From a virus (lineage: Duplodnaviria > Heunggongvirae > Uroviricota > Caudoviricetes): a DNA stretch of 64,000 nt. Numbering within the stretch: position 1 is the stretch's first letter; every line of letters begins with the position of its first letter. This document shows, one piece after another, positions 1 through 64,000 of this stretch. Under the pieces are notes generated by a model that was given only the letters and a program-made list of their open reading frames with translations, was not told the DNA's origin and searched no databases. The stretch lies in the IMG/VR virus record IMGVR_UViG_2698536687_000001. One strand, written 5' to 3'. Made by a program: the position numbers and the translations under genes.

Positions 1-115
1 TCGCGGTGTCGGCGTTCCCCGCCAGCGCCCCGGTGATCCCACCATTGAAAGTCTGGCGTGCACTCCATGTGTTAGCCGTGCTCAACAGGGGGATCTTTTC
101 ACCGCTTGTGCCAAG

Positions 116-141
116 TTCTCTTAAACCAAGGTTTAGGATTG
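116..141. other. cix: cix-like crossover site for the Cin invertase (TTCTCTTAAACC-AA-GGTTTAGGATTG); bases 1-115 are the edge of an invertible tail-fibre C segment
   Basis: 12-2-12 dyad-symmetric site with TAAACC half-site ends, resembling hix/gix/cix sites; overlaps the cin stop codon at 133-135. Confidence 0.6.
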
Positions 142-693
142 AAATGATGACGCAGGAAACTTTTTATAAAGCGTGGAAACAGCAACATCATAGATGATTG
201 CAACCTGCTTACGGGGGATGCCATTCTCCAGCAATCGACGCATTTGCTGCCATGTTTCTTCTTGGTATTTAGGCCGACGGCCTCCTATTCGACCTTCTGC
301 GCGAGCTGCATCAAGTCCAGCGCGTGTACGTTCAACGATAAGCTCACGTTCCATTTCTGCCAGCGCCCCCATTACGTGAAAGAAAAAGCGCCCCATTGGT
401 GTACTGGTGTCGATGGAGTCAGTGAGACTCCGGAAGTTAATGCCTCTGTCACGCAGCTCTTCCACCAGCACAACTAAGTGACGCATGCTGCGCCCAAGAC
501 GATCTAACTTCCATACGACTAGGGTGTCACCTCTGGAAAGCATACGGAGAACCTTTTTTAACCCAGGGCGTTCAGCCTTTTTGCCGCTCGCCTTGTCCTC
601 AAAAATTAGCTCACATCCTGCGCTTTCAAGAGCGTTTCGTTGTAAAGCAGTGTTTTGTTCATTTGTTGATACGCGTACATAGCCTATTAGCAT
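133..693 (-). CDS. cin: Serine recombinase, Cin/Gin/Hin/Pin-family DNA invertase
   Basis: 186 aa; N-terminus MLIGYVRVSTNEQN with catalytic Ser, GDTLVVWKLDRLGRS and C-terminal HTH (IYDVAVSTLYKK), near-identical in pattern to P1 Cin as recalled. Confidence 0.9.
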   Translation of the reverse strand: MLIGYVRVSTNEQNTALQRNALESAGCELIFEDKASGKKAERPGLKKVLRMLSRGDTLVVWKLDRLGRSMRHLVVLVEELRDRGINFRSLTDSIDTSTPMGRFFFHVMGALAEMERELIVERTRAGLDAARAEGRIGGRRPKYQEETWQQMRRLLENGIPRKQVAIIYDVAVSTLYKKFPASSFQS

Positions 694-820
694 ATTTTCT
701 GCTCACTATCGTTATTTATAGCAAGCTGCGGATTTTAATTAACAAAAACCAGTATGTGTGGAAATCACAAAGTACATACCGTTTCCCAATGATATTTAAT
801 TCACTATTAAGGAAATAGTT

Positions 821-1102
821 ATGTGTGATTTCACAATAATGCTCCTCTCCATCCTTGGCGGGGTGCATTCGTTTCTGAATGGGGTTCGTGAAAAACGTTA
901 CGAAGCGTCATGCAGGCAATTGATGGCCGAGTGTATTGCTGCCGTACTTGCAGGCTTTATAGGCATGTATTTCGCGGAATATAAGGGTATGGATGAAAGT
1001 CTTCAGAATTGCGTGACTATTATTTGCAGCATCAATAACAGGCTCATTCTTGAAAAGTTACAAAGGATTATCGATTCGTACCTCAATAGAAATGCCTCTT
1101 AA
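821..1102 (+). CDS. Hypothetical small protein with hydrophobic segments, between cin and the lysis/dar operon
   Basis: 93-aa ORF with ATG preceded by AGGAAATAG; no recognisable motif. Confidence 0.3.
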   Translation: MCDFTIMLLSILGGVHSFLNGVREKRYEASCRQLMAECIAAVLAGFIGMYFAEYKGMDESLQNCVTIICSINNRLILEKLQRIIDSYLNRNAS

Positions 1103-1169
1103 GCAACAAATGACCGGTTGAGAAGTTACTTTGCATACCATTACCTCCTGACAACGTAGGAGGGAACTT

Positions 1170-1499
1170 GTGCTTGACACACAGGAATTAGCTCCAGTTG
1201 CTATTGCGCTCCTGCTTTCAGTAATTGGTGGGATAGGCACGTTCCTGATGGATGTCCGAGACGGTCGCCAGTCTGGCAATTTGTTGGGATTGGTTACGGA
1301 GATCTTTGTTGCAGTGACAGCTGGCGCGGTGGCGTACCTATTGGGGCAACACGAGGGCTGGGAGTTATCAATTACGTACTTAATGGTAACGATAGCCAGC
1401 AATAACGGTCATGAGGTGATTTCAGGGATGAAACGAGTGAATATCGATAGCATTCTGAATGTTCTTACAAGTTTGGTGAAAAAGGGAGGCGGGAAATGA
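1170..1499 (+). CDS. lydA: Holin (P1 LydA-like)
   Basis: 109 aa, hydrophobic helices (VAIALLLSVIGGIGTFL, IFVAVTAGAVAYLL), charged C-terminus; first gene of the dar operon as in P1. Confidence 0.7.
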   Translation: MLDTQELAPVAIALLLSVIGGIGTFLMDVRDGRQSGNLLGLVTEIFVAVTAGAVAYLLGQHEGWELSITYLMVTIASNNGHEVISGMKRVNIDSILNVLTSLVKKGGGK

Positions 1500-1939
1500 T
1501 TGGCTGGGGTGTATGCGTTCTTGCGTTAGCCTTAGCCGATCGCTATTTGCTAAAACGCAAGGACATCACGCATTTAGAACTTGGTGATGTGGAAATTAAA
1601 CCGGGTTTCATCCGGGTGCCGTTCAAGTACCGGTCTAAATTCCCGTTTTTGCGCGGCGCAACGGTCAGATATTGGATCCGCGATGTTCAGAAGCCGACGA
1701 CAGTGATTGAAGGTGAACAACGTTGTCTGACGTCGGCTGAACAGGGCGAAAACAGTGAATGGTTGTACATACCCACTGAATATATGGGTAAAGGAGAGCG
1801 ACTGTGGCATTTCAACGTCATGGTTACGCATGGCGACTCGTTCATTAACCCGTTGTATCGGATTTTCCCTGTTACTCAGCAAATCCGCAGAAGTTACGTA
1901 ATAAATCTCGCACAGGATGTGTCAGATGACGAAAAATAA
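1496..1939 (+). CDS. lydB: Antiholin-like protein (P1 LydB-like)
   Basis: 147 aa, start overlaps lydA stop (ATGA coupling), N-terminal hydrophobic segment; position matches P1 lydB. Confidence 0.55.
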   Translation: MIGWGVCVLALALADRYLLKRKDITHLELGDVEIKPGFIRVPFKYRSKFPFLRGATVRYWIRDVQKPTTVIEGEQRCLTSAEQGENSEWLYIPTEYMGKGERLWHFNVMVTHGDSFINPLYRIFPVTQQIRRSYVINLAQDVSDDEK

Positions 1940-2528
1940 GTATGCAACGGTCGATTTTGACCAGGTTAATGAAAAGGGGCTGAAATCCCTTATCGCGGCG
2001 ATCAATAAAACCGGTGTTACGGTAATTGAGGTTGACTCCAGCAACCGCGCAACAACGAAAGATGGCGTTAAAGTTAAAACCGCAAAGCTGGTTCTTAACG
2101 ACGGACAAATTCTTGCCATACAGGTAAACGATACTGGCGATATATCGTCTGTGAAACTGAATGGAAAAGCTATTCCTAACGCTCAGTCGCCGGATATCAA
2201 GACGCTTGGTACCGTCATGGGACAGGCGGCCCGCAAAAACTCCGCAAAATTCCAGAAATCACTGATCGCCAAAGCGAAGCGTGTTGCCAATCCGGTAGAC
2301 AAGAAACCGGCAGTTAAATCCAACTTTCAGCGCCTGCAAGAAGCAAAACAGCGGAATGCTCAGGTGGTTGCCGCTTATAAATCAGCGCAGAACTCGGTGT
2401 CTTTCAATCAACAGCAGATCACTGATTTGCGGGCGAAGCTGGATAAGGTGACAGGCCGACTCAATAACGAAAAGGCCCGAAATGGCGAACTCAAACGCCG
2501 TCTTAAGCAACTGAAAGCAGGAAATTAA
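1926..2528 (+). CDS. hdf: Hdf (homolog of DarA fragment), head-associated antirestriction component
   Basis: Shares the NSAKFQ-containing lysine-rich segment with the downstream DarA ORF; start taken at ATG 1926 (AGGA 9 nt upstream), alternative ATG at 1917. Confidence 0.6.
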   Translation: MTKNKYATVDFDQVNEKGLKSLIAAINKTGVTVIEVDSSNRATTKDGVKVKTAKLVLNDGQILAIQVNDTGDISSVKLNGKAIPNAQSPDIKTLGTVMGQAARKNSAKFQKSLIAKAKRVANPVDKKPAVKSNFQRLQEAKQRNAQVVAAYKSAQNSVSFNQQQITDLRAKLDKVTGRLNNEKARNGELKRRLKQLKAGN

Positions 2529-2529
2529 C

Positions 2530-4449
2530 ATGGAACAGTTCAATATCAATAAAGGGGTGACGATCAAGCCTGGGCTTGACGTGCTTCCCCCGCCAGTGAC
2601 TGATGATGAATATCGCGCATTAATGGCCGGTGAGGACCGCTATCTGATGACGGAATCCAACACCCTGGAGGAAATCGAGGCTACGTTCTTCTATGACACG
2701 CCGATCCACTGGTGTGCTACGGATTTACTGGAGGCGATTAGTTCTACTCGTTTGCAGTTACACCGGACCATGCAGGCATTTGTCCGGGCATTGAACCAGA
2801 AGCTGAATGGTACCGGAATCTCTGCGGGGAGTGATAAAACGGGGGATGTGGCCCAGAGCGGCGCGCGCGCGATCGGCGGCGCTGAAATTGGCCGGGCACG
2901 TAACGTTAACGGGCTGCCGGTCTTGCCAGCCATTATTCCGCTCAGTGATGGTCAGACTATCAGCATTCTGTTTCATAGCCCGACAGCGGAAAACCGGATC
3001 ACCAATAGCGATACGCTGGTTGCTTTCCAGTTCTTACTGAATAAAAAAGACGTTACTCACACAGTTGCTCCGATGAGTGGACGTGATATGACGCTGGCGC
3101 AGGTCACCATGAAACTTGCCAACCTTGCAGAGAAAAACTCGGCAAAATTCCAGCGTGCGCAGAAGAAGAAAAAAGCCCTTGTTGATGAAATAACCCAACT
3201 ACAGGCTGACAGTGACCAGAAAGAGGATGCCATGAGCGACCTCGCGGATCAGGTGGCAGCGGTAGAAGGGCAGAAGGCAGATCTGGAGCAGAAAATTAAC
3301 GCTGTTGCATCGGAAGCGGATTCTCTTTATGAAGAGAATGAGCGTTTGCAGACGGAGATTGATCAGCTCAATCGCACTGGTGGGCGCAATACCATTGCTC
3401 CAGCGGGGATGACTGGTGGGCACTCTCACGCGCTGACGGATCGCCTTGCCAGTATCAAAAATCGTATGCATATGGACGGGGAAGTGACGCTCAGTAATGG
3501 TGCATCAATGAAGCAATTCATTGGGGGCAGCGAAGGGTATATCCAGTTAACCGATCCGGATGGCAGCGTATACATGATCAAGGCTAAATCCATACAGGGT
3601 GTGGACATGGCAGATGCGATCGGCAAGCTGTTTAAAGCCTATAAAGCGGGTAATGTATCGGAATACCTGGTCCAACCAGAAGAACATAAACCGGAAAACG
3701 TCGAACCTGAACCAGCGGAGGATACCGGTAGCTCTTCGCCTGAACCAGAAGTCTCTGTAGGTGCATATCGATATGCCCTGCAAATGCGTCCGGCGGCCCC
3801 TGGCGCAATACCTGAAGGTAACAAAGCAATTCTGCCGCGCCCTGATGAAGGTGACCCGTATTATGAATATGCACGCTACGGCATTGCTACTTACGATACC
3901 CCGCTTTCTGATCAGCAAATGAGTGAGTACGACCTGAAGTTATTGCCTCGCGAGGATTCTTTCGACTTCCTGGCGAAGACACTTACTAATGGTCCGTTTG
4001 GCAAATATGCACAAAAAGCTCTGGAGCTGGCCACCAGCTCACCAGACGAGTTCCGCGTAATGCTGAAAACTCAGTTTCAAAAAACTTTCCCCAATATTGC
4101 GTTTCCGGGTGGCGCTGGCACCGAGAAAATGGTGCAGAGCATGATCAATGCATTGCAGGCCGAAGTCGGTGAGATTACTCAGCCAGAACCGGCCCCGGCA
4201 CAGCCTGATGAAACGGTTAGCGAAGCAGATGCAGAGGCTAATAAAGCCATTGAATATCTCAATAACGTGATGGATATGCAAAGCACTGACATGGCGGAGA
4301 TCCGTAACGCCCGGGGCAATGTCCGGGAAGCGATTGCAGCCCTTCAGGCTGCCGGACGTTTTGAGGAAAACGAAGAGCTGGTTAATGGCGCTGCTCGCCA
4401 CCTGGCTGATCTGCTGGTAGCAATCCAGAAAGCGGGGGTAGCGGCATGA
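2530..4449 (+). CDS. darA: DarA, defence-against-restriction internal head protein
   Basis: 639 aa, matching P1 DarA size as recalled; coiled-coil centre; sits between hdf and ddrA. Confidence 0.7.
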   Translation: MEQFNINKGVTIKPGLDVLPPPVTDDEYRALMAGEDRYLMTESNTLEEIEATFFYDTPIHWCATDLLEAISSTRLQLHRTMQAFVRALNQKLNGTGISAGSDKTGDVAQSGARAIGGAEIGRARNVNGLPVLPAIIPLSDGQTISILFHSPTAENRITNSDTLVAFQFLLNKKDVTHTVAPMSGRDMTLAQVTMKLANLAEKNSAKFQRAQKKKKALVDEITQLQADSDQKEDAMSDLADQVAAVEGQKADLEQKINAVASEADSLYEENERLQTEIDQLNRTGGRNTIAPAGMTGGHSHALTDRLASIKNRMHMDGEVTLSNGASMKQFIGGSEGYIQLTDPDGSVYMIKAKSIQGVDMADAIGKLFKAYKAGNVSEYLVQPEEHKPENVEPEPAEDTGSSSPEPEVSVGAYRYALQMRPAAPGAIPEGNKAILPRPDEGDPYYEYARYGIATYDTPLSDQQMSEYDLKLLPREDSFDFLAKTLTNGPFGKYAQKALELATSSPDEFRVMLKTQFQKTFPNIAFPGGAGTEKMVQSMINALQAEVGEITQPEPAPAQPDETVSEADAEANKAIEYLNNVMDMQSTDMAEIRNARGNVREAIAALQAAGRFEENEELVNGAARHLADLLVAIQKAGVAA

Positions 4450-4811
4450 CACTATCAGCTATTGAGTTAATGGATCTCAGCGATAAGTTGGATGCTCTGA
4501 TGTCCAAAGCGGCGACCGCGAGTGGCATGGAGTTGCTGGATATCAGCGATGAAATTGACCAGATCATGCAACAGATGGGGTACGGCGCGTCCGGCGGTGG
4601 TAGTGGCGAGGAAAAACAACCTTCGGAACATGATGGTGTGCCAAAACTGGTTGCTGATTTCCTGGCTGATAAATTCGTCGATCAGAGCACCGATGCATTT
4701 ATCGGTACCTTGCAGGATTTGAGTCAATATGTTGGCACATACATCGACCTGGACCAGGTTAAACAGCACACGGCGGCATGGATAGCCGCCAACATTAAAG
4801 AGGCAGCATAA
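4446..4811 (+). CDS. ddrA: DdrA-like protein of the dar operon
   Basis: 121 aa, overlaps darA stop; position as in P1. Confidence 0.55.
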   Translation: MTLSAIELMDLSDKLDALMSKAATASGMELLDISDEIDQIMQQMGYGASGGGSGEEKQPSEHDGVPKLVADFLADKFVDQSTDAFIGTLQDLSQYVGTYIDLDQVKQHTAAWIAANIKEAA

Positions 4812-4823
4812 GGCGTAACAGGG

Positions 4824-7811
4824 ATGAGCTTAAGCGATCAGGTGGTAATGGCCACCAGCATAGAAACGCTGATCGAGCTGCTAAAGAACCTGCCCGATTA
4901 TGGGCGGGTTTCGTATGTGGTGACAGCGAAGGGAGACGAGGTAAAAACAGCGTTTGATATCGTCGATGCCTCAGTTCTTTTGGTATCCAATACTCTGGAT
5001 GGGAAAATTAATCCTGACTATCCCCAGGAACTTCAACCGCGCGACCGGACCCGCGCATCCAGCCTTCTTCAGGTTAACCAGATATCCAAAGATTTGCGGC
5101 CTGCTCAGCTTACTGATTCCGGTTTATCCAGCCATGGCGCGCCGATAATTGGTGAGGACAATGCCGTTGAGTCAGGTAATGGACGGACCATGGGGATCAT
5201 CAAAGCCTATCAGGACGGCAATGCGGATCGGTATCGTGAGTACCTGATTGATCATGCGACCGAATTCGGCATACGACCTGAAAAGGTTGAATCAATGACG
5301 GCTCCGGTACTGGTGCGCCGCCGGTTAACTAAGGTTGACCGCGTTCAGTTTGCCAAGGACTCAAATATTTCTGATCTTCAGGAAATGGCAGCCAGTGAAA
5401 AGGCTTTTGTTGATGCCGACAGCATAACACCGGCGATGATGGCGCTTTTTAACCCGTCAGAAAGCGGAGATCTGCTTAGCCGCAGTAATGACGCGTTTAT
5501 TCGCGGATTTATGACGCAAGTTGGTGCCACACAGGCGGCTGGCCTTGTAACGGAAGATGGGCGACCAACGCGGCAACTTGTTGACCGTATACAAAACGCG
5601 ATCTTTGCCAAGGCATATAAGGATGCGCGCCTGGTAAGGATGGTTGCAGAAGAACCTGATCCGGATATGCGTAATGTTCTGACGGCGCTTAATGCGGCAG
5701 CCAATGATTTTGTCCAGATGCAGGCTTTATCAGGAGAAGCGCACAAGCAGGCTGTGACAACTATTGTTGATGGCATTGAGACAGCGGATAGCCTCGATAA
5801 AAAGGCGCTGGCGGCATTGAAAGATGCGGTAGACCTGGTAAGGCAATCGAAGGAGTCAGGCCAACATATTACCGATGTTATTGCTCAGGGGGATATGTTC
5901 AGCGAAACAGCCCCGGAAGTGAAAGCTCTCGCGTTGTTCATCGTCGCGAATAACCGTAGCGCGAAGCGTATGGCCACCGCCTTTAAATTGATGGCTCAAC
6001 GTATCAATGATGAGTTACAGCACCAGTGCCAGGCGCTGGGGGATATGTTTGGCGGTGGTGATGTGTCGTTACAGGATATCCTTCGCCAGGTGTCTCAGGA
6101 ACTGGAAAACGAAGGCATGCAAGGGATATCCGGCGGTCTTTTCGAGTCCGTTTCCGGCGGTAGTTACAACGGTGTTGCTCCATATACCAGTTTGCTATTA
6201 CATCGGGCATCCGGCATCAAAGACATTATTCATCTGATCAGGCTGCTTTCCCGTACAGATCCCCAGGATGAACAGCTTGTACAAGTGCTTGCGCATTTTG
6301 TTCGAATGCCTGTTGCCGACGTGAAAAAATGGTGCCGATTATTCGGTATCAGCAATTCGTTACTTCGCGGCTTGTTAAATCACGCATCCTCCCTTGGGCG
6401 CGATGGCTTTGACGAGATAGCGCAGGCGATAAAAAACGGAGATATGCCACCAGCTATTGACTGGTTTTCCATTCGCCCAACCAGGGTGAAAGCATTCCTT
6501 AGCGCGGCGCATTCGGCATCACCATTGGCAGAAATGGTTCAGAGATTGTCGCTCATATTCACAGACCATACCGCGTTGGGTGATCTGACTCTGGACGAGA
6601 TGAAAGAAGCCTCCATTCAGTGGGCCGATCAACAAAATGAGGTTAACTCAGACTTCTTGCCAGCATTCAGGAAGGCCGTTAGTAAAGCGGATGATGCCCG
6701 TGGAATTCTGAAGGCATTTAAGGCATTGCAAAGTCGTGTTAATAAACATGTCGGTGATATCGATGGGGTAACGGCGGAAGGCCGGGATATTCTTAAAGAG
6801 CACGGCATAACACCAGAGTTTATTGATGAGATCAGGACGGATATGCAGCGTGAGGTCGTATCGTCCCTGCAAATTGTAGCCAGAGCGTTGGCGGATGCTA
6901 ATCCGAAGAGTGCGGCCATTGTTAACCGGGTTATTGGTGATATTGAAGCATCGGAGGGCATGGGGGCGCTGAAACTCTTCCTTTCGCGAGCGTTTAATCC
7001 TAACGGCAATATTCTCCCTGGCATTATTGGTGAGGCTAAAAAGTATGTCAGTGAAGAAGAACTTGAGCAGCTTGACCAACTACTTAAGCGATTCTCATAT
7101 AACCCGCAGACACGCTGGCAAATGAATCAGCGAAGTATGGGTTCGGTCCACGAGAAAGTGTTATCTGCCATGAACAGTGCGATCGCAAACTCATCCGTAT
7201 CTGAAGAAAAAGCTCTTGAGTGGGCCGACTCTTTTATCACGGAAGAAGTGGAAGAAGCTCGCGCTGGACAGAATGGTGGGATAGACCTGCGCAAGGAACT
7301 TGCTGATATTTATCGCCTGACCGGCGGGAAAATATCGACCTTATCAAAGGTAGTTCACCACCAGGGAAGGGCATATGCAAATCTAAATGGTGTTGTTGCT
7401 GTCAATTTGAACGATGAAAATGCAAGTGCACTGTGGCACGAGCTGGGTCATCATCTTGAGTACAGTAACCCTGGTTTGTTAGAGAAAGCCCGATCATTCC
7501 TGAAGGCCAATGTTGAAGGGGATAAGCCATCTTTCGTCAATATCGGTGGGCGTGGCAAGCCTGAATGGTGCTTCAGATCTCGATTGAGTAATATTTATAT
7601 GGCGAAGGTATACCCGCCAGTCTCAGTGAGTAACTCAGGGAAAATTCGGCAGAAATCACCGACTATTTCCAAAACGTCAGCAACGGAAGTATTCTCTATG
7701 GCTCTTCAGTTGTATCATGACAAAGAGGCCGCTGCCGCATCACTGATGAATGGTGACGGATTGCTGGAACTGTTATTAGGTGTGGCAAAGGAGCTAAATA
7801 ATGCAGATTAA
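4824..7811 (+). CDS. ddrB: DdrB-like large protein of the dar operon
   Basis: 995 aa ORF directly after ddrA; position and size as in P1. Confidence 0.6.
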   Translation: MSLSDQVVMATSIETLIELLKNLPDYGRVSYVVTAKGDEVKTAFDIVDASVLLVSNTLDGKINPDYPQELQPRDRTRASSLLQVNQISKDLRPAQLTDSGLSSHGAPIIGEDNAVESGNGRTMGIIKAYQDGNADRYREYLIDHATEFGIRPEKVESMTAPVLVRRRLTKVDRVQFAKDSNISDLQEMAASEKAFVDADSITPAMMALFNPSESGDLLSRSNDAFIRGFMTQVGATQAAGLVTEDGRPTRQLVDRIQNAIFAKAYKDARLVRMVAEEPDPDMRNVLTALNAAANDFVQMQALSGEAHKQAVTTIVDGIETADSLDKKALAALKDAVDLVRQSKESGQHITDVIAQGDMFSETAPEVKALALFIVANNRSAKRMATAFKLMAQRINDELQHQCQALGDMFGGGDVSLQDILRQVSQELENEGMQGISGGLFESVSGGSYNGVAPYTSLLLHRASGIKDIIHLIRLLSRTDPQDEQLVQVLAHFVRMPVADVKKWCRLFGISNSLLRGLLNHASSLGRDGFDEIAQAIKNGDMPPAIDWFSIRPTRVKAFLSAAHSASPLAEMVQRLSLIFTDHTALGDLTLDEMKEASIQWADQQNEVNSDFLPAFRKAVSKADDARGILKAFKALQSRVNKHVGDIDGVTAEGRDILKEHGITPEFIDEIRTDMQREVVSSLQIVARALADANPKSAAIVNRVIGDIEASEGMGALKLFLSRAFNPNGNILPGIIGEAKKYVSEEELEQLDQLLKRFSYNPQTRWQMNQRSMGSVHEKVLSAMNSAIANSSVSEEKALEWADSFITEEVEEARAGQNGGIDLRKELADIYRLTGGKISTLSKVVHHQGRAYANLNGVVAVNLNDENASALWHELGHHLEYSNPGLLEKARSFLKANVEGDKPSFVNIGGRGKPEWCFRSRLSNIYMAKVYPPVSVSNSGKIRQKSPTISKTSATEVFSMALQLYHDKEAAAASLMNGDGLLELLLGVAKELNNAD

Positions 7812-8109
7812 AATCGCAGCGCCATTAGGCGGAGATGCCATTATCGAATTTGATGATAATGAAGAAGTTTCCGGGCGTTTAAGCATTATCTCCGGTGACA
7901 TTACCGAGGACATGATCGCTGAAGCCATAGCTGGAGCAAATCCCAATAGCTATATGGGATTCGTTAACACCCTTGATGCTCCCGCAAGTGATGTTCTCCG
8001 AACGCTGCATCTTTACGCTGGCTGGTTTGTTGATTGGCCTGTTGTAGATGGTGGCGATGAGGACGACGACGATGATTTTGGTGATCATGTAGGTCAGAAT
8101 GTTTATTAA
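7801..8109 (+). CDS. Small acidic protein with poly-Asp tail, translationally coupled to ddrB
   Basis: 102 aa, start overlaps ddrB stop; C-terminal GGDEDDDDDFGDH. Confidence 0.4.
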   Translation: MQIKIAAPLGGDAIIEFDDNEEVSGRLSIISGDITEDMIAEAIAGANPNSYMGFVNTLDAPASDVLRTLHLYAGWFVDWPVVDGGDEDDDDDFGDHVGQNVY

Positions 8110-8279
8110 ATAGTATTAGTGTAAGCTTAATTAGCTATTTTTAAGGCACAAAATTTGTTTATTCTATAGACGGAGTTGTGCCTGATTTTATAATTAAATA
8201 TTTCTCGCGTGCTGTAATAAGTGAGAGTGTTAAATGGTAATACTGGTTGTCTTTAGCAAAAGCTTAAAAGGAAATATAA

Positions 8280-8714
8280 ATGAACTCTTCGTCAAAACAG
8301 GCGATCATAATTCATGATGTATTATGCCATTATTGTAAAACTCACTATGATAGTGATGTCATGGTATTAACTATTGAACAGGATGTTAATTCTGGGTGGA
8401 ATCTTCGTGGTAAAGGAGAAATCCATACTAAATGTTCATGTCCTGTCTGCGGAATGATGTATACTGCTGTAAAGAGAATGATACCTATTGAGTGTGATAG
8501 CTATTTATGTCCAACGTGTAATGAATCATCAAACCTTGAATATAATGTATACAAGATCGAACGAGTTCAAGATAGTAATGATTTTACATTTAAAGCTAAT
8601 ATAATATGTAAGAAATGTCACAATAAAAAAACATTGACTAAAGTCATCAAAAAAATCCTAAATATAAAGAGAATTGAAGTTAAACTTACAGGGATTACTA
8701 TTGAGAGATATTAG
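8280..8714 (+). CDS. Cysteine-rich putative double zinc-ribbon protein in an AT-rich islet
   Basis: 144 aa with CxxC/CxCxxC/CxxC/CxxC spacing; AAGGAAATATAAATG RBS; visibly lower GC than flanks. Confidence 0.5.
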   Translation: MNSSSKQAIIIHDVLCHYCKTHYDSDVMVLTIEQDVNSGWNLRGKGEIHTKCSCPVCGMMYTAVKRMIPIECDSYLCPTCNESSNLEYNVYKIERVQDSNDFTFKANIICKKCHNKKTLTKVIKKILNIKRIEVKLTGITIERY

Positions 8715-8819
8715 TGAATAATTTTGATAGGTATTTTATAGCTGGATTGTAATTTATAGCTGAATGTGATGAACATCGAATACAAGCAGGTAATAATCCC
8801 GCCAATCGGCGGGATTTTT

Positions 8820-9614
8820 TTAATCGCTTTCCACTTCTTCCGTGGTGTTTTCTTGCAGTTCTGTTAATGCAGCACGGCACAGGTTACGGGCATTGGCTAT
8901 AGCCACACTTTTTACCTCATCCGTCATTGTGCAGGTAATGTACTGATCGAGTTCTTCAGCTCGGATGATGCTTTTCCCAATCATAAACTCTATTTGCCAG
9001 AGCAGATCGGCATCCATCGTCAGTATTTCAGCCGGGCCTTCTGGGCCTGCGGGGAAGCAAACATAAGACTGTTTGCCCAGGCCGATAACTCGACAACTTG
9101 CTTCAAGAATTGCGCGCTTGAGGTCTGACTTTGTAACGGAAACAGGTTGATTTTCACCAGTGATTACGCCGTTGACATGGAAGTGGAAGGGCATGTAGCT
9201 TGAAATTCGCTCTACTTTCCATACGCCAGCAAGCGATCCTTCATGCAGCACAATGGGGGTAACCGCGAGTTTCATCTCACCATATAACTGCTGGCAGATA
9301 GCTGGATTGCTGAATACATCCAAAGGTTCACACTCAAACAGCGGCGCAATCTGCATGAGGTCCATCATGGTCATACCAGGGGTACGAGCAGTAATGAATC
9401 TGCGCATTCCAGTATCCATTGTGCGCCAGATAGCTACACCATGCTTTTTGCTCACTTCTTCAGTAAAGCCAAGGTGGCACATGATGGTTGTTTCGATAGC
9501 CAGATCGGAGATAGAAACCTTTTCGCCTGGCACTCCATCATTATTGATGGTCACTTCGACACTCTGGCCATTACGTAGGCGGTATTGAATGGTTTTAGTA
9601 TTTTGTGCTGTCAT
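8820..9614 (-). CDS. Hypothetical protein
   Basis: 264 aa from ATG at 9614 (MTAQNTK); the 304-aa six-frame ORF extends upstream of the likely start. Confidence 0.45.
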   Translation of the reverse strand: MTAQNTKTIQYRLRNGQSVEVTINNDGVPGEKVSISDLAIETTIMCHLGFTEEVSKKHGVAIWRTMDTGMRRFITARTPGMTMMDLMQIAPLFECEPLDVFSNPAICQQLYGEMKLAVTPIVLHEGSLAGVWKVERISSYMPFHFHVNGVITGENQPVSVTKSDLKRAILEASCRVIGLGKQSYVCFPAGPEGPAEILTMDADLLWQIEFMIGKSIIRAEELDQYITCTMTDEVKSVAIANARNLCRAALTELQENTTEEVESD

Positions 9615-9811
9615 AGTCTTTTCTCTGCTTAAAAACTGATGTATTGCGCCTTCAGGTGGGTCAGGAATGTTTTCCCACCAGCGAAAGCAATATCTCGGGG
9701 TGTTCTTTTCGTGAAAAGCGCGTGCCATTGCCAACTTTGGCGTTTTTTAGCGAGTTCGTGCTTTTGTCGGCGTCTGGACCACCGCTTTTCTTTCAGTCGT
9801 TTTTTACACAT

Positions 9812-10300
9812 TCAAAACGGAATATCGTCGTCAAAGTCCATTGGAGGTTCGTTATTGGCGTTGCTCTGAGGTTTACCGCCACCACTGTATTGCTGGTGGT
9901 TTTGAGGTTGGTTTGATTGCCCCCAGCCATTTGAGGACTGTGAATCGTCACGGCGAGCGCCGATCATTTGCATGGTGCCGCCCTGGCTGACGATAATTTC
10001 CGTCGTGTAACGTTCTACACCGGCGTCATCTGTCCACTTACGGGTTTTAAGTTTCCCTTCGATGTAGACCTGAGAGCCTTTTCGTAAATACTCACTCGCA
10101 ATTTCAGCAAGTTTTCCGAACAAAACTACTTTATGCCATTCTGTTTGCTCTTTCTGTTGGCCCGTTTGCTTGTCGCGCCATGATTCATTCGTTGCGATGC
10201 TGAGTTTTCCGACCGCGCCGCCATTTGGTATATACCTGATCTCCGGGTCTTGCCCCAGGGTACCAATCAGGATGACTTTGTTTACACCGCGTTGTGTCAC
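9812..10300 (-). CDS. ssb: Single-stranded DNA-binding protein
   Basis: 162 aa; OB-fold N-terminus ([18 protein letters not shown]), Gly/Gln-rich linker, acidic tail DFDDDIPF. Confidence 0.92.
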
Positions 10301-10319
10301 TTATCTTACCTAATAAAAT

Positions 10320-10336
10320 AAATTAATTAGAGCAAT
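10320..10336 (-). promoter_or_regulatory. C1-operator-like site upstream of ssb
   Basis: AAATTAATTAGAGCAAT, 16/17 to reverse complement of ATTGCTCTAATAAATTT. Confidence 0.55.
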
Positions 10337-10469
10337 AATGTATATCTTTGAAACGTAGCTAACAAGTGATTTGCATTATCCTGTGCCTTCTAAAGGGATC
10401 GAGTCAGTCGGTATTGGCTGTGAATGGGTGTTTGTCCTGGAGCGTAAAAAATTCGCTTATGAGGTCTTT

Positions 10470-11027
10470 ATGAAGGGAAAAACAGCCGCAGGAGGCGGTG
10501 CAATTTGCGCTATCGCGGTGATGATTACCATCGTGATGGGTAATGGCAATGTGCGAACCAACCTGGCGGGGCTTGAGCTGATTGGTAACGCTGAAGGTTG
10601 CCGACGTGATCCATACATGTGCCCGGCGGGGGTATGGACTGACGGGATCGGTAATACACACGGGGTAACGCCGGGTGTGCGAAAAACCGACCAGCAAATC
10701 GCCGCTGATTGGGAAAAGAATATCCTGATCGCTGAACGCTGTATTAATCAGCACTTCCGGGGCAAAGACATGCCCGATAATGCCTTCAGTGCAATGACAA
10801 GCGCGGCATTCAATATGGGATGCAATAGCTTACGGACCTACTACAGCAAAGCGCGAGGCATGCGAGTCGAAACGTCCATCCACAAGTGGGCGCAGAAAGG
10901 GGAATGGGTGAATATGTGTAACCATCTCCCTGATTTTGTGAACAGTAACGGCGTGCCCCTGCGAGGTTTAAAGATTCGCCGTGAAAAAGAACGCCAGCTT
11001 TGCCTGACGGGACTGGTCAATGAATAA
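10470..11027 (+). CDS. lyz: SAR endolysin (T4-lysozyme-like, P1 Lyz)
   Basis: 185 aa from MKGKTAAGGGAICAIAVMITIVMG (signal-anchor-release segment); lysozyme core; GAGG RBS at 10461. Confidence 0.9.
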   Translation: MKGKTAAGGGAICAIAVMITIVMGNGNVRTNLAGLELIGNAEGCRRDPYMCPAGVWTDGIGNTHGVTPGVRKTDQQIAADWEKNILIAERCINQHFRGKDMPDNAFSAMTSAAFNMGCNSLRTYYSKARGMRVETSIHKWAQKGEWVNMCNHLPDFVNSNGVPLRGLKIRREKERQLCLTGLVNE

Positions 11028-11271
11028 ACTCCGGCAGCTCCGCAGACTTTCGACAATGAAGTTATCGCTGGCAGCGATAGTTTTCGACTCGATTTTCATG
11101 GCGGTATATGTGCTTAATGAAACGTGGCCACTGGAACCGCTATTGTATGCTGGGCTTCGGCTGTGCCTGACATTTTTGAGCATGGCCGCGAGATTGATGC
11201 AGCAGAAAGAAACCGCTTCAGATTGTCCACGCCGCGCGGTGCGCAAATATATGGCACGCAGACGAAGGTGA
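11020..11271 (+). CDS. Small membrane protein overlapping lyz end, possible lysis accessory protein
   Basis: 83 aa with two hydrophobic segments and basic C-terminus; overlaps lyz stop. Confidence 0.35.
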   Translation: MNKLRQLRRLSTMKLSLAAIVFDSIFMAVYVLNETWPLEPLLYAGLRLCLTFLSMAARLMQQKETASDCPRRAVRKYMARRRR

Positions 11272-11318
11272 TAATAGTTAACGAGAACCCCGGCAGCCGC
11301 CGGGGTTATTTTTGGTGG

Positions 11319-14049
<2,731 letters not shown>

Positions 14050-14115
14050 TTAATTAGAATAATTCGCATCGTGTTTGAACGGAATTTAACACTAGTCACT
14101 TGTTAAGGATTACCA

Positions 14116-20883: not shown

Positions 20884-20916
20884 CAGGAGCGCCCGGTTCG
20901 CCGGGCGTCGCATAAT

Positions 20917-39565: not shown

Positions 39566-39569
39566 AAAT

Positions 39570-45955: not shown

Positions 45956-45984
45956 ATCTTCAGCTCCTGTGATTGATTGGATAT

Positions 45985-46016
45985 ATGCCGCGCCCCTTGC
46001 GGCATGTTTTTATTTT
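45985..46016 (+). terminator. Rho-independent terminator downstream of hsdR
   Basis: ATGCCGC-GCCCCTT-GCGGCAT hairpin followed by GTTTTTATTTT. Confidence 0.6.
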
Positions 46017-46039
46017 CACTTTCTCTGTTTTAAAAAACA

Positions 46040-46056
46040 AGATTTATTAGAGCAGC
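46040..46056 (-). promoter_or_regulatory. C1-operator-like site
   Basis: AGATTTATTAGAGCAGC, 14/17. Confidence 0.4.
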
Positions 46057-46562: not shown

Positions 46563-46634
46563 ATGCCCTCCTCATTGGACGAAAAAAATGCTGGTGGGCG
46601 CACTCCACCAGCATTAAAAGTGACACTGTAACTA

Positions 46635-59504: not shown

Positions 59505-59541
59505 AGCTAAATCGCTCTATAAATCACGATTCATTGAGGCG
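59505..59541 (-). promoter_or_regulatory. C1 operator (perfect 17-mer) overlapping a minus-strand promoter-like sequence
   Basis: AAATTTATTAGAGCAAT at 59525-59541; on the minus strand TTGCTC-N17-TAATAT. Confidence 0.5.
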
Positions 59542-59561
59542 ATATTACACTAATAAATTTA

Positions 59562-62500
59562 TTAGAGCAATATGCCTAAAACGTCATGAGCAACACCTCG
59601 AGTGTCCCCCTTACAAGACACAGAACGTCTGGCAAAAAGAGGTTCCACTCTGAAGCCATTGTCATGATAAAGCTCTCTGATGTTTGGCGCGCCACTGTTA
59701 GTAATGAGAACCTTTGCACCTCGGCGATGAGCATCCGTCAACAGAGACACCAGGCGTTTTTGCTCTTCAAACTTAAAGTCATGACCGGAATAGTTCGTGA
59801 ATCCCTCTGTATTTGGAAGCGGTTCATATGGCGGATCGCAAAAAATGACATCTCCTTCTCCGGCAGCTTCAATCACCGCAGCAAAATCACCACATACAAA
59901 CTCAGAACGACCTTCCGCACCGAGGAAGGCTTCCATCTCCTGTAATGGGAAATACGGAGTTTTATACTTCCCATAACCGACATTGAACTCACCGGCCTGG
60001 TTGTAACGCGTCAATCCGTTAAAACAATGTCGGTTCAGGAACAAAAACGCCGCTGCGCGATGTAAATCATCATAGACTTGTTTGTTAAACGCATTCCGTA
60101 CTGCCAAGTATCCTTCCTGTGTCTTGTAGTCCTGGAAAAACTGATGCGCCAGTGTGATAAGTGAATGCGCCTCGCGTTGCAGAGTCTTGTAAAAGTTAAT
60201 CAGGTCAGCATTCACATCATTTAGCAGATTTTCCTGGTATCCGGCATTCATGAAGACAGCTCCGCCACCGACGAAAGGTTCAATCAGGCGCTTCCCTTCT
60301 GGCAAATAGCGAAAGATTTGTTCCAGAACACCAAATTTTCCACCAGCCCATTTGAATATGGACCGTTCGAATTCTGCCGCTGGTTTAACTTTTCGCTCTT
60401 TTGTTTCACGCCCTTCATTCTGCCGACATGCAGCCTTGGTTATCCGCTCGCCAATCCAGCGCATTACTGGTATCGCCATACTATTGCCGATCGCTTTGTA
60501 ACGCGGTCCGTCAGCTGCAAGCATCGCGGCCTCTTCTTCGCTTAAATCTGGATAGTGATTGTGCAGATATACCAGTTCATCTGAATTAACTTTTTTACGC
60601 TTTTCCGTAGGGATCAACGTATGCCCATCAGGAAAACCTTGAAGTCTCTCACATTCGACAGGGGTAAGACGGCGGACAGCTACTTCTTCGTTTCTTACTT
60701 CATAGCAAACAGCAGTTGGATTTTGAGCCATTAGAGATGGTGAAGTATTCTTAGTTGCTGCATGTTGTGTACCACTCATACGCTCAGGAAAAGCCAATGT
60801 AACAAGATGCTCATGGCTTTCTTGCTCACGCGCCCGCAATGTACCATGCCCTTCTGACCAAAAACCTGCTCCAGTGCTGCTAAAAACGGCAAGGTCAGTG
60901 GCATCTTTAAAGTCTCTTGCCTTTACTGTCGATGCGGTTTCATCGTCAATATATTCCCCAAATGCCGCCATCCTGAAACCGTTTACGGCTTTCGTCGATT
61001 TCATACCGGGGGACATGCCAGCGTGTAGGCATGGATTTAGGCTTTCGCCACTGATTGCAGCGCCATTTGCAGTAATGGCGGAAGCGATTTCCTTCTTTTT
61101 TCGGCTCGGCGCAATATTCCGGCGCACGCCTTCGAACTCAAAAAGTACCGTTGCGGGATCGAGGTCTGTTCGAGCACTTGCGACAACAAACACGCGTCGG
61201 CGTCGTTGTGCCACTCCGAAGTATTGGGCATCAAGGATTCTCCAGGCCACCTTTCGCTGCGGTCCATAAATACAACCACACTGTGGCCACTTTGGAGCAT
61301 GGCAACCGGTTTTGCCATCCCACCGCCAGAACGCGTTACTTTTTCCTGATTCAGGTCGATCACCTGGTTCAAATGGCGCATCTTCTCCAGCCAATCCGGC
61401 AAGGAAACATCCGAAGGCGTTATCTGCCGATGACAAGACTCCTGGGACATTTTCCCAGACGATAACGGCTGGTTTGAGAAATGACTCAGCCCGTTTGTCG
61501 TCAATTGCATTTGCAAGCTCCACATACTTTAAAGTTAGCGCGCCACGCTCATCATCAAGCCCACCACGTAATCCAGCGATACTGAATGCCTGACAGTTAT
61601 GGACCACCGCACCATTGAGGATATAGGAATGATCACCTTCGACTTCTATGTTGTATACAGTATCTAGGCCTACCGATTTAAACTCTTTGACTGTTCGTAA
61701 AAGCATTCCATGAGCCAATCTTGATTTACGTGACAATTTCTGCGGGCAGATTGTTACCTGATAATAATTCCGTTGATTTACCACGCGATCCTCAATCACT
61801 TTTTTGGGCTTAACTTCAATAAAGCTGACCGAAGAAACGTAACCACAAGTCTGTGACAACTCCGCAACGCCCCAAGCAAGCGCAGGACTAACACTATTAA
61901 TTCTAAATCCCGCTTTACCACTTGGTGTCCCATCAGTATCAAGATAGCCTTGTAAAAACACATGACGCAATGGATGCGACATAACCCATGCAGGGATACG
62001 CTTAGCATGGCTTAACTCGCCAAAATGTTCATTAAGCCAATTGGCATAACACGTATCATTCAAGGTTACTTTGATGCTCCCTCGGATTTCGCTTGCCACG
62101 GAAAATATGTTTTCTGGTATGCGGCAATGAAACTTTCTCAATTTCTGGCAATTTATGCCAAAAACAACCGCCTTCTTAGATTTACCTCTCCATCTCCTAA
62201 TATATCCATCGCCAACATAAGCGCCCGCAAGATACATAGCCTGTTCTTCAGACAAGAACCGAGAACAAATATCTGGAGATGCAATATTGAAATTAGTTAG
62301 AGCACACCATTGATATCCCGGCATATCACATGCTGCTCGCCATTCCGGTTCAGACAACAACTCTCTCTTAAAATATGTGCCATTTTTCCGGGTGTTTTGG
62401 GCTTTCCACCGAACCGCCAGGAAGGGATGGTCATTGGTTGTTCTTATACCTAAAGGCTGCCCAACGGCATTAAGTAACCCCGTATTAGCTATTTTTGAAC

Positions 62501-62849
62501 CAACTCTTTTTACTTGTTGTAACCGCCCGAGATGACTGACTACGTAATCGCCAGGGCAAACATCTTCTATTGGTTTATAACCATTTTTACAAAGAACCAT
62601 ATGCCCCGCGGTAAAACATGGTGTCCCTCCCACCAGCACATCAGGGGCTTCAATTTCTCCAGCCTGGACTTTTTGGGCGAGTTTTGTCATGTCGCCAAGG
62701 TTGGCGACATGGGGCCAGTGGTACGCAAGAACGGCAGATGGAAAAGGCTCGATTTCAGCAAACCACGCCGGACGCATACCCAACGGTTCCCAGGCAATAC
62801 TCGCGGCTTCAATTCCACTGCAAACAGATCCATAGCACAGCTCTTTCAC
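59562..62849 (-). CDS. dmt: Dmt bifunctional DNA methyltransferase (N-terminal C5-cytosine domain, C-terminal Dam-like N6-adenine domain) containing an intein
   Basis: 1095 aa; C5 motif [14 protein letters not shown] split by a 341-aa insert; C-terminal Dam-like region (WAGGKFGVL...[10 protein letters not shown]...DPPY); extein total 754 aa. Confidence 0.9.
61596..62618 (-). mobile_element. Intein with LAGLIDADG homing endonuclease inserted at the catalytic Cys of the Dmt C5-MTase PCQ motif
   Basis: Begins CFTAGHMV (block A), TNDH (block B), [11 protein letters not shown] and [11 protein letters not shown] (LAGLIDADG motifs), [21 protein letters not shown] followed by +1 Cys; in frame, 341 aa. 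Confidence 0.85.
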
Positions 62850-63751
62850 TGCTTAGCCTCTCCACCAAGGGCATTTACCAGAGCATCAACCAGGCACGAA
62901 ATTTCACTGGTCAACAGGAAGAAATCTGCGTCCAGTCGCTGCGCTACATCTTCACTATCAATATCAGAGTTCTGATCAAGCAATTCATCCGCAAATTTGA
63001 CGCTGGTAAGGCTGAAGTTATGGTCCAGTGTAAATTTAATGCGGTTCTGCCAGTCGAGTGCCAACTTAGTGACGAGCTTGCCAGCTTCCAGGTGTGTGGA
63101 AATTTCATCGCTTCCCAAATCCTGCTTTTTCACTCGGGCAATACCGCCATCCTCAAGCACTGCCTTAAGTTCTGCCGCATCCCCCATTTGAAATCCCTGT
63201 GGAGCACTACCATCACGTACCCAGTCGGTCAGCGTTAATTCAATGGGATTTTCAACACCCAGGGGAACAACAGGAAGAGAACCCAGAGACTTACGCATAA
63301 GCGCGAGCATATCCTCTGCCTGCCGCGCGCTGGCATTGATATAGATACGTTTAGTTGAACCGTCGTAGATCGCCTGGATAACAGAAAACTTTGAAAAAGC
63401 CCGTGGCAGAAGAGAATGCAGAACTTCGTCTTTCAGGGAGTCCTTCTCTGTTTTCTTCAGTTTACGCGCTTGTTCTTGCTCAAGTTTTTCAATTTTTTCT
63501 TGAATAGCTCGCTGGATAACCGGCGGGGGAAGAATTTTTGTTTCGCGCTTTGCTTCAACAAGGATAAAACCATTTCCATGCATAGCGATAACTTCGGAAT
63601 TATCACCAAATGGAGATACAAAACCGAACTTGGCCATATCCTGACTACCGCATGGCGTGAAAAGGATCATTTTCTTTTTATCTTCTAAGTCGGTCAGATC
63701 CGCCTCACGAGAAAGTTTATAAATAGTAATGTTTTTCCAGTGCTTAAACAT
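62846..63751 (-). CDS. hrdC: HrdC, RdgC-family recombination-associated protein
   Basis: About 301 aa from [16 protein letters not shown] (AAGGG RBS), collinear with E. coli RdgC motifs ([40 protein letters not shown]); stop overlaps dmt start. Confidence 0.9.
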
Positions 63752-63962
63752 GTTGTAACCCTTGAATATCAACCACAGAAAGCTCGTCTTTGTAGAAAAA
63801 GGCCAGGTTGTGGCACCCCCTCGTTTGAGCGTATGAGCTGGGACCAATTTCGTTCTTCCAGACAAATGGCTTCAAATCCGTACGGCGAAGCATAAAAACG
63901 CGATTTGTTCCGCTCTGATTCCCAATGAGGCAAAAGCCTTCTTTCACCTTGATAGCCTGCAA
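63744..63962 (-). CDS. Unverified small ORF upstream of hrdC (P1 uhr position); may be part of a gene running off the window
   Basis: 72-aa six-frame ORF only. Confidence 0.2.
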
Positions 63963-64000
63963 GTTGTCGAGTTCACCGCTGGTTACACGGCTATCGAACT

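Follow-up and report, generated by a model that had tools for sequence, protein, structure and literature searches.

A P1-like phage-plasmid with accessory DNA in exchangeable slots, two tandem C4-Icd-Ant cassettes and an intein in the Dmt methyltransferase

Introduction

Where does accessory DNA sit in P1-like phage-plasmids, and how does it pass from one of these genomes to another? We addressed this question in IMG/VR record IMGVR_UViG_2698536687_000001, a 64-kb stretch of tailed-phage DNA that we call the window. An original prediction, made from the letters alone, had read it as a P1-like backbone carrying several cargo swaps. We find with high confidence that the window represents roughly two thirds of a P1-like phage-plasmid (Punavirus) of the E. 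coli type, whose accessory DNA occupies fixed sites bounded by gene ends. The general pattern of a P1 backbone with swapped cargo in slots is already known; the particular combination seen here is new, and so is the tandem arrangement of two immunity cassettes between c1 and pacB.

Mosaicism among these elements is well documented. Across 54 P1-like phage-plasmids, eight highly variable regions have been described: res-mod, isaA-IS1-isaB, lydC-cin-S, simABC, rlfAB-pmgF, repA-upfA, tciABC and pmgT..humD (PMC9603915). About 30% of P1-like genes are reported as recombining, and restriction-modification systems are prominent among what is exchanged (PMC10879196).

Results

Whole-window alignment confirmed the P1 backbone and the P1 gene order. 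Aligned by blastn with the P1 reference NC_005856, the window reads antiparallel to the P1 map: in P1 coordinates it runs from 32350 to 1, through the lox junction, and then from 94800 to 65261, on the opposite strand. Eight collinear blocks at 92.5–98.5% nucleotide identity make up this path: 3–8112 to P1 32350–24241 (98.3%), 8820–21600 to 22531–9752 (98.4%), 26133–29473 to 3341–1 (96.7%), 29474–31042 to 94800–93232 (95.9%), 34407–39641 to 93204–87970 (92.5%), 45865–56483 to 84482–73866 (97.8%), 58863–61595 to 69373–66643 (97.3%) and 62616–64000 to 66645–65261 (98.5%). Once six replaced segments are removed, the collinear backbone amounts to 45.8 kb (72%), and blastn finds some P1 match for 47.2 kb. 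The six segments themselves total 18.2 kb, or 28% of the window; this alignment had been set beforehand as the check on the predicted replacements, and it bears them out. In a megablast search of a phage collection, the first 25 kb matched P1, P7, RCS47, SJ46, JL22 and other Punavirus at about 98%.

The features that mark a Punavirus are present: a collinear backbone, Cre/loxP, C1 with dispersed operators, pacA/pacB, Lpa and Phd/Doc. The cre, loxP and c1 loci had been called identical to P1, which is exact for loxP (34/34 nt without mismatch, 29457–29490); elsewhere nucleotide identity is 95–99%, and the proteins are close but distinct (Cre 99.1%, C1 98.9%). Lxc is 100% and DarB 98.8% identical to P1, tail and baseplate proteins are at least 99% identical, and the packaging and addiction proteins follow (PacA 97.0%, PacB 88.7%, Lpa 98.7%, Phd 100%, Doc 99.2%). 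The window holds 14 C1-operator-like sites of 17 bp, against 0.31 expected by chance. With P1 and its relatives it therefore shares gene order, 92–99% nucleotide identity over 72% of its length, the exact loxP, Cre, C1, Coi, PacAB, Lpa, Phd/Doc, Dar, tail and baseplate genes, C1 operators and the variable slots.

Could the swaps instead stem from a mistaken P1 map, with the window being essentially wild-type P1? P1 gene order is kept, most genes are 97–100% identical, and one predicted detail was in fact wrong, as isaA is present. Yet 18.2 kb lacks a P1 counterpart. Of 69 annotated P1 proteins used as tblastn queries, 49 matched over all or nearly all of their length; no match in the window was obtained for Res, InsA/B, IsaB, Plp, Upl, TciA-C, Ban, Dbn, PmgT-V, Hot, Lxr and HumD. 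The blastn alignment already refutes this explanation, which we regard as virtually impossible.

The replaced segments lie at gene ends. We letter them as slots A (8113–8819), B (21601–26132), C (31044–34404), D (39642–45864), E (56484–58862) and F (61596–62618). Their limits are the hxr and isaA stops for A, the lxc stop and the mat 3' end for B, the c1 and pacB stops for C, positions 3 nt before the humD stop and just upstream of pmgT for D, and the gp5 3' end and the inside of trnA for E; slot F is an intein within dmt. Slots B, A, E and D fall in four of the eight published regions, so that alignments and literature agree with the prediction of several variable slots from a single phage-plasmid family. 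The predicted occupants of two slots, an autotransporter island at res/mod and hsdMSR at pmgT-humD, are both there. By class, the cargo comprises defence (type IC here, type III in P1, SIR2, PIN or RelA-SpoT in relatives), an adhesin with a regulator, immunity and anti-immunity functions, and selfish nucleases (an intein and an HNH enzyme). The P1 system at res/mod is the type III enzyme EcoP1I.

Slot states recur among relatives with identical junctions, in other combinations. Five genomes were compared in full, and none carries all the states found in the window. Every state except the tandem junction of slot C recurs elsewhere: slot B in pRHBSTW-00046_2 (CP056895.1, hereafter pRHB46), slots D, E and F in pZBEC21_01 (NZ_CP143628.1) and p1919D3-2 (NZ_CP046005.1), slot A in NZ_CP116245.1, and the two units of slot C in p1919D3-2 (unit 2) and in IMG/VR contig L014 (unit 1). 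Identity in 1-kb steps is likewise patchy: about 100% to pRHB46 at 22–27 kb, about 100% to pZBEC21_01 at 56–63 kb, 99% to p1919D3-2 at 33–35 kb, and 97–99% to all of them over the rest. We rejected the idea that the window is one known plasmid, as pZBEC21_01 covers 42–64 kb and pRHB46 only 9–31 kb. Relative to the compared P1-like records, the combination of states is unique, there are two pacB/c1 cassettes as against none or one, and pacB is only about 78% identical at the nucleotide level over 1 kb.

Because junctions are shared and states assort independently, we infer allelic exchange. Slot states would most likely swap as alleles by homologous recombination in backbone flanks that are about 97–99% identical, between co-resident or co-infecting P1-like genomes. 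The competing idea is that transposition or site-specific integration brought each cargo into this lineage in a separate event. Relatives give it some encouragement: their IS1 slot can hold an IS1-flanked autotransporter with the look of a composite transposon, P1 has IS1 and IS5 in two slots, and the free-standing HNH endonuclease and the intein indicate that homing-type mobility acts in this genome. But none of the six segments has a transposase, an IS end or an integrase other than Cre/Cin, in or beside it. We found no transposase or IS among the open reading frames of the non-P1 segments and no tblastn match to insA/insB, and the IS5 of P1 lies inside the replaced res-mod segment. Each slot's junctions are shared base for base with at least one other plasmid, and the stretches adjoining cargo are donor-like (26–27 kb at 99.8% to pRHB46; 59–63 kb at 100% to pZBEC21_01), as flank-mediated exchange predicts. 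Independent insertion is accordingly improbable. An IS-mediated origin of the slots was rejected as well: IS1-flanked cargo occurs in relatives only.

Slot C (minus strand) stacks two diverged immI-like cassettes between the convergent c1 and pacB stops, which in P1 lie about 25 nt apart. One immI-like module had been predicted here; the module is real, but it comes as two tandem copies. The segment stands outside P1 collinearity, with only weak matches (70–81%) to P1 icd/ant elsewhere on the map. Unit 1 (31044–32672, minus strand), next to c1, contains a C1 operator-like site (32555–32571), an isrK-like leader (32402–32480; Rfam 60.2 bits), a C4-like antisense RNA (32270–32357; 75.4 bits, the Rfam C4 gathering score being 45 bits) with loop CCCTTTGAC, an icd-like gene (31994–32215), an Ant allele running from 31997 downward whose 3' part is masked by a run of Ns at 31053–31318, and a terminal 98-nt copy of the pacB 3' end (32575–32672). 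Unit 2 (32673–34404, minus strand), next to pacB, starts at 32673–32700 with the last 10 nt of c1 and a terminator hairpin; then come Ant (32715–33827; ORF6N plus KilAC, with Pfam matches ANT and ORF6N), an icd-like gene (33824–34045; NCBIfam Icd-like), a C4-like RNA (34100–34187; 75.0 bits) with loop CCCTTTTGC, an isrK-like leader (34232–34310; 58.2 bits) and a C1 operator-like site (34385–34401).

The two units are 89.4% identical to each other, and each is closer to a single-copy cassette in another genome. Unit 1 is 98.8% identical to the c1/pacB cassette of contig L014, and unit 2 is 99% identical to that of p1919D3-2, which carries it on top of a canonical immI. Single-copy cassettes occur in 309 PLSDB records (coverage at least 80%) and in phages JL22 and RCS47, and an ant insertion between pacB and c1 is already in print (PMC6906374). 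At the unit junction (32672/32673), the 98 nt of the pacB 3' end meet the last 10 nt of c1, the c1-side terminator hairpin and the Ant stop, and the only microhomology at the joint is CGAAA. The junction itself is observed. Its likely origin would be an unequal illegitimate join at CGAAA, fusing one genome's pacB 3' end with another's c1 3' end and so stacking two alleles. One donor would have had the order c1-unit 1-pacB (L014 type, 98.8–100% identical), and the other c1-unit 2-pacB (p1919D3-2 type).

Both units carry the pairing elements of C4 control. In P1 immI the sites are GTTAGTG and TTGACAG, and in P7 they are GATTGTG and TTAGCAG at equal offsets. In each unit the C4 loop (b') and tail (a') are complementary to target pairs upstream of c4 and at the icd ribosome-binding site. 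The b sites (8 nt) lie at -116/+87 and the a sites (7 nt) at -133/+56 (-103/+80 and -117/+51 in P1/P7); the +87 b target falls on the icd Shine-Dalgarno sequence in both. The a element TTGAGAC is common to the two units, and b differs by two bases. Unit 1 pairs loop CCTTTGAC with b1/b2 targets GTCAAAGG, matched to its own loop, and unit 2 pairs loop CCTTTTGC with targets GCAAAAGG. Scanning IMG/VR with a degenerate pattern, and adding the retrieved plasmids, yielded 31 cassettes with two loop alleles only, CCCTTTTGC (23 cassettes) and CCCTTTGAC (8); the window loops lie at 34122–34151 and 32292–32321. The loop matches both 8-nt targets in all 31 (31/31), and outside the window none of the surveyed cassettes shares a locus with a second one.

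The cassettes resemble immI of P1 and P7 in having a C1 operator at the head, a leader with a1/b1 targets, C4-family RNA complementarity at near-equal offsets, and an Icd-like reading frame in translational overlap with a KilAC-domain Ant. They differ in position, lying between c1 and pacB rather than between sim and kilA as in P1. They differ from P1 immI in sequence as well, with about 70% nucleotide identity at icd and the ant 5' part and 81% at ant 3', and in an Ant N-terminus that is ORF6N. Unlike either immI, the leaders score as Rfam isrK, a family name applied to Gifsy-1, and there are two tandem alleles. P1 and P7 are heteroimmune (Citron & Schuster 1990, as cited in PMC8201110), and the two loop alleles parallel their difference in c4 specificity. 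By this parallel the two C4 alleles may be separately regulated, with Ant expected to antagonise C1 and each C4 RNA to repress the icd/ant of its own allele. A further step, that the tandem cassettes are functionally distinct specificity alleles of one accessory immunity/anti-immunity module, is a tentative proposal that we consider rather unlikely.

Extra antirepressors are found in other relatives too. CP045689.1 and NZ_CP142921.1 have a KilAC antirepressor gene beside c8 that replaces ref/mat, in addition to a pacB/c1 cassette and a canonical immI. Antirepressor genes seem to accumulate in the P1-like family.

Several observations weigh against reading the window as a P1-like phage-plasmid with exchanged slots and a genuine tandem. 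The replicon, par, repL (the lytic replicon), canonical immI and half the tail genes map outside the 64-kb window (the P1 replicon, partition and repL region lies at P1 48–63 kb), and a complete viable phage-plasmid is not demonstrable from it. Also absent are ban, dbn, the tRNAs and pmgT-V. The tandem junction (32380–32900) found no counterpart by megablast at 80% coverage or more in any of 765 matching records of PLSDB (72,556 plasmids), nor in any of 5,426 complete E. coli genomes, and an exact 36-mer across it had no match in GTDB representative genomes or IMG/VR. Finally, both runs of Ns have lengths that disagree with relatives: 61 nt against 20 nt at 23229–23289, in a Pro-rich autotransporter linker, and 266 nt against about 461 nt at 31053–31318, in the duplicated Ant 3' region. 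Both runs have the look of gaps left by scaffolding across repeats, or of masks whose length is arbitrary. Some of the order may therefore depend on scaffolding, and the autotransporter frame and the C-terminus of the unit 1 Ant are unreadable.

Two alternatives draw on these points. The first holds that the element is a decaying, non-inducible plasmid derived from P1. In its favour, ban, dbn, three tRNAs, pmgT/U/V, hot and humD are gone, P1-like elements turned plain plasmids are documented (PMC10879196), and no plaques were obtained with JL22, which shares the extra ant cassette (PMC9603915). However, the structural, lysis, packaging and regulatory genes inside the window are all full length and 84–100% identical to P1, every lost gene falls in a region known to vary in bona fide P1-like phage-plasmids, and JL22 still produced virions and lysogenised (PMC9603915). 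Decay is therefore an unlikely account of the window.

The second alternative concerns above all the tandem pair, which could be an assembly or scaffolding artefact from a sample that held two P1-like variants with one allele each. The larger run of Ns lies exactly at the c1-proximal edge of unit 1, both alleles are known as single copies at this site in other genomes, and the junction is unique in every collection searched. But this junction lies in unbroken sequence 1.35 kb from the gap, its microhomology of about 5 nt is too short for a k-mer assembler to bridge, and copies that are 89% identical do not easily collapse or mis-join; the duplicated Ant 3' region would itself account for a short-read assembly break at 31053. 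We judge an artefact to be a minority prospect, about on a par with decay.

Slot F confirmed the predicted intein in dmt. The gene (59562–62849, minus strand) encodes a bifunctional C5 and N6 DNA methyltransferase (Pfam DNA_methylase and MethyltransfD12) of 1095 aa, as against 754 aa in P1, and its exteins are 96.6% identical to P1 Dmt. A single in-frame insertion of 341 codons (61596–62618, minus strand) lies between P77 and C78 of P1 Dmt (GTP/CQAFSIAG). It begins with CFTAGHMVL, has TNDH as block B, ends in VVHN, and is followed by the Cys of PCQ as +1 residue, which we take to be the catalytic Cys (motif IV) of the C5-methylase domain. The splicing residues are C1, T61-x-x-H64, H340-N341 and C+1, and C1, T61, H64, N341 and C342 are invariant in 12 homologues. 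Pfam scores exceed the cut-off for Hint_2 (28.5; cut-off 28.4) and LAGLIDADG_3 (32.7; 22.5) and stay below it for Intein_splicing (18.1; 35.8). An AlphaFold model (pLDDT 92.6) has a HINT plus double-LAGLIDADG homing-endonuclease fold, with PI-SceI and the TliVMA intein at the top of the Foldseek matches (E-values 4e-17 to 5e-16 for these two) and the Pho VMA intein, PI-PfuI and PI-PkoII also among the best. Of the acidic LAGLIDADG residues, D137 is invariant and D229 is kept in at least 90% of homologues.

Together, motifs, profiles and fold identify the Dmt insert as a class 1 LAGLIDADG intein, as judged from its sequence; it is canonical and probably active. Such inteins share Cys1, TxxH, two LAGLIDADG motifs, a terminal His-Asn, a +1 Cys and insertion at a catalytic residue; this one differs from solved and known inteins in its host protein, a bifunctional phage-plasmid Dmt. 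By homing, a LAGLIDADG intein would have entered dmt at the catalytic-Cys codon of the C5-methylase domain. The intein would splice from the Dmt precursor, restoring the PCQ active site, and its endonuclease would cut intein-less dmt during co-residence.

All 11 aligned homologues occupy the same site (PC/../C(Q/T)xxS), in other C5 DNA methylases. The nearest relatives outside P1-like elements are 47–52% identical and include Mannheimia haemolytica (578 contigs); relatives at about 30% identity at this site include one labelled Pseudonocardia and one labelled Parvibaculum, and identity to structure-solved inteins is 11–17%. At 95% identity or more the intein is found in 126–133 PLSDB plasmids. 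A backbone query returned about 1,000 plasmid records at 95–99% identity, and the intein is present in about 12% of these, roughly one in eight, with either state of slot E. Among the matches listed, nearly all carrier genes are labelled "Dam family ... methyltransferase", one is labelled "DNA cytosine methyltransferase" and one has no annotation. A full-text literature search, which did not reach subscription-only papers such as Gilcrease & Casjens 2018, found no paper linking an intein with P1-like elements; in actinophages, DNA methylases that contain inteins have been reported (PMC9957025). The Dmt intein thus seems undescribed in the searchable literature, though widespread in databases.

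The flanks of the insertion vary as well. Around positions 61570–61595 and 62619–62640 we compared the window with loci L003, L006 and L007 and with P1 66625–66670, five genomes in all. Three intein-plus dmt alleles have synonymous changes in common, on either side of the insertion and no more than about 20 nt away, that are absent from two intein-minus alleles; more distant flanks belong to other haplotypes. In this small sample the pattern resembles a tract of co-conversion by homing, or else an altered recognition site.

Slot D (plus strand) replaces pmgT, pmgU, pmgV, upfM/N/O, hot, lxr and humD (P1 84483–87969) with a restriction-modification locus. It encodes hsdM (39742–41304; NCBIfam TIGR00497, 649 bits), hsdS (41301–42551) and hsdR (42673–45789), all on the plus strand, and PADLOC returns type I hits for the hsd genes. 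HsdR, of 1038 aa, aligns with EcoR124 HsdR (2w00) at 2295 bits, covering 1038/1038 residues, and the conserved regions of HsdS align to 7bst_A (1.8e-73). By these matches, slot D is a type IC system of the EcoR124 family. Its HsdS contains three TAEL repeats where the PDB chain of the EcoR124II specificity protein has two, and both target-recognition domains (TRDs) differ from that chain; its specificity is therefore presumably new and untyped. TAEL repeats, of 4 aa each, form the central spacer of HsdS and determine how long the spacer in the target is. In pZBEC21_01 and p1919D3-2 the S alleles are different again from that of the window.

The boundaries of slot D coincide with a known association. 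They fall at P1 84482 and 87970, where the P1 GenBank record notes 96–98% identity to DNA flanking the EcoDXXI and R124/3 hsd loci, and type IC hsd loci flanked by P1 DNA were reported by Tyndall et al. 1997, as cited in PMC12707154. With EcoR124I/II, EcoDXXI and EcoprrI the system shares the order hsdM-hsdS-hsdR, HsdR length, the N-terminal, central and C-terminal conserved regions of HsdS, the TAEL element and the P1 junction coordinates; it differs from the EcoR124 group in residing in a phage-plasmid rather than a conjugative plasmid. Many P1-like plasmids have hsdMSR in this slot with other S alleles, and others keep the P1 genes. In NZ_CP116245.1 (locus L039, 28157–35171) the slot holds hsdM-hsdS-prrC-hsdR of EcoprrI type, prrC being an anticodon nuclease gene that the window lacks.

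In slot B (minus strand) a regulator and an autotransporter stand in for res, mod::IS5 and the mat 3' end with its last ~40 codons (P1 3342–9751). The GerE/LuxR-type regulator (21747–22160, minus strand; 137 aa; Pfam GerE) precedes, in window coordinates, an AIDA-I/MisL-type type Va autotransporter (22194–25525, minus strand), which is followed by an AT-rich spacer. The latter matches the Autotransporter beta-domain (PF03797, 2.3e-45), AC_1 (PF18883, 1.7e-27) and TIGR01414, and has partial NCBIfam matches to MisL, ECSE_1600 and AIDA-I, all under equivalog cut-offs. Its reading frame is broken by the 61-nt N-run and continuous with a 20-nt gap as in pRHB46. Like the AIDA-I/MisL adhesins of E. 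coli and Salmonella, it has an N-terminal signal-like segment, a repetitive passenger, AC_1, a Pro-rich linker and a 12-strand-type beta-domain; unlike those families, it scores below every named equivalog cut-off, has a small GerE/LuxR-type regulator as its partner and occupies the res/mod slot. The slot is 99.8% identical in pRHB46, a UK wastewater plasmid, with the same lxc/mat junctions and an alignment unbroken across both. At 88% it recurs in the Shiga toxin-producing E. coli (STEC) plasmid NZ_CP012497.1, the sole carrier among complete E. coli genomes, and other P1-like plasmids fill the res/mod slot with SIR2, PIN or RelA/SpoT genes.

A different autotransporter occupies the IS1 slot of two relatives. 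In NZ_CP143628.1 (78704–82528) and NZ_CP046005.1 (65561–69343) it lies between two IS1 copies in composite-transposon-like fashion and is about 81% identical to the window protein, in the barrel only. Such cargo therefore enters P1-like plasmids by at least two routes and into two slots.

Slot A (plus strand) is a 707-bp AT-rich segment (GC 0.31) standing in for IS1 and isaB (P1 22532–24240). The prediction had IS1-isaA/isaB replaced by an AT-rich zinc-ribbon gene: IS1 and isaB are indeed replaced and a Cys-rich frame is there, but isaA is kept at full length (8823–9782; 98.4% over 320 aa by tblastn). The sole open reading frame (8280–8714) encodes 144 aa with four CxxC pairs, the one basis for the zinc-ribbon label, which is only a pattern-level call. 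It has no family above cut-off in Pfam, PHROG, NCBIfam or PADLOC, with sub-threshold Pfam matches to DUF7836 and PHD_Oberon. Only 4 clusters among 5.8 billion proteins are homologous (55–97% identity), one of them from Providencia rettgeri, which makes this protein nearly an orphan. The identical segment occurs in just two PLSDB plasmids, NZ_CP116245.1 and NZ_MN510447.1; other P1-like plasmids carry an IS1-flanked autotransporter or DUF2829 genes in the IS1 slot.

Slot E, which the original prediction did not list, runs from the gp5 3' end to 26 nt inside tRNA-Asn and stands in for P1 69374–73865. It replaces trnA, trnT, plp, upl, tciABC, trnI, ban (a DnaB analogue) and dbn, and no tRNA was detected in the window. 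Beyond a variant gp5 C-terminus it encodes orf110 (56739–57071, plus strand), orf236 (57125–57835, plus), orf156 (57798–58268, minus) and a free-standing HNH endonuclease (58417–58836, minus; PHROG 5.8e-39) that adjoins the 26-nt tRNA-Asn stump. PHROG places two frames in phage families (phrog_25194 and phrog_34496 were matched), and one frame is without family. A reading of these frames as a defence system was rejected, the only PADLOC match being a marginal one to LeoBC (1.7e-4). The slot state is 99.9–100% identical in pZBEC21_01 and p1919D3-2.

The backbone between the slots lies, like the P1 map, along the minus strand and falls into six blocks. The first (1–8112) holds the end of the invertible C-segment with cixL, cin (136–693), lydC, lydA/B, hdf, darA, ddrA, ddrB and hxr (7801–8109); each of its P1 proteins matched at full length (97–100%), and the lyd-dar-hxr operon is transcribed on the plus strand. 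The second (8820–21600) comprises isaA, ssb, lyz, lydD/E, pro, prt, darB (14116–20880), ulx and lxc (21354–21602). The immC/cre region (26133–31043) has mat, ref, c8, cre (28010–29038), cra, loxP, coi (29872–30081, plus) and c1 (30192–31043, plus). Then follow pacB (34405–35889), pacA, lpa, pdcB, pdcA, doc and phd (34405–39641), and pap, pmgS-pmgL, genes 26, 25, 7, 24 and 6 and most of gp5 (45865–56483). Proteins of this fifth block are 92.6–100% identical to P1 (pap 92.6%, pmgN 94.1%, others 98.7–100%), except gp5, whose gene spans the slot E boundary (83.7%). The last block (62619–64000) contains the dmt 5' end, hrdC (62849–63751) and a partial uhr. One backbone stretch stands out: 35001–36000, the pacB 5' part and pacA 3' end, has only about 78% nucleotide identity to P1 and three other P1-like plasmids, with neighbours at 97–99%. 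Judged by this divergence, pacB is a variant terminase allele outside the published list of variable regions.

Discussion

As a whole, the window changes nothing in what is known of P1-like mosaicism: exchange hotspots, the linkage of type IC hsd loci and the extra ant insertion are all published. It is a compact example in which slot states recur with identical junctions in different relatives, supporting flank-mediated allelic exchange. The Dmt intein is widespread, yet its host gene is labelled only as a methyltransferase, and the intein seems to have escaped both annotation pipelines and P1 reviews.

Of all the parts, only the C4/Ant tandem with its two alleles merits a short follow-up. 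With two co-varying C4/target alleles side by side, allele-specific antisense immunity between P1-like elements is directly testable. If specificities are indeed stacked, the alleles would silence incoming rivals of either type, making the locus a weapon between incompatible P1-like elements, and as a superinfector the element would express at least one Ant that a resident cannot silence. If so, the tandem and the Dmt intein together would mean that selfish modules and modules of inter-element conflict, beyond cargo that benefits the host, drive the mosaicism of P1-like phage-plasmids.

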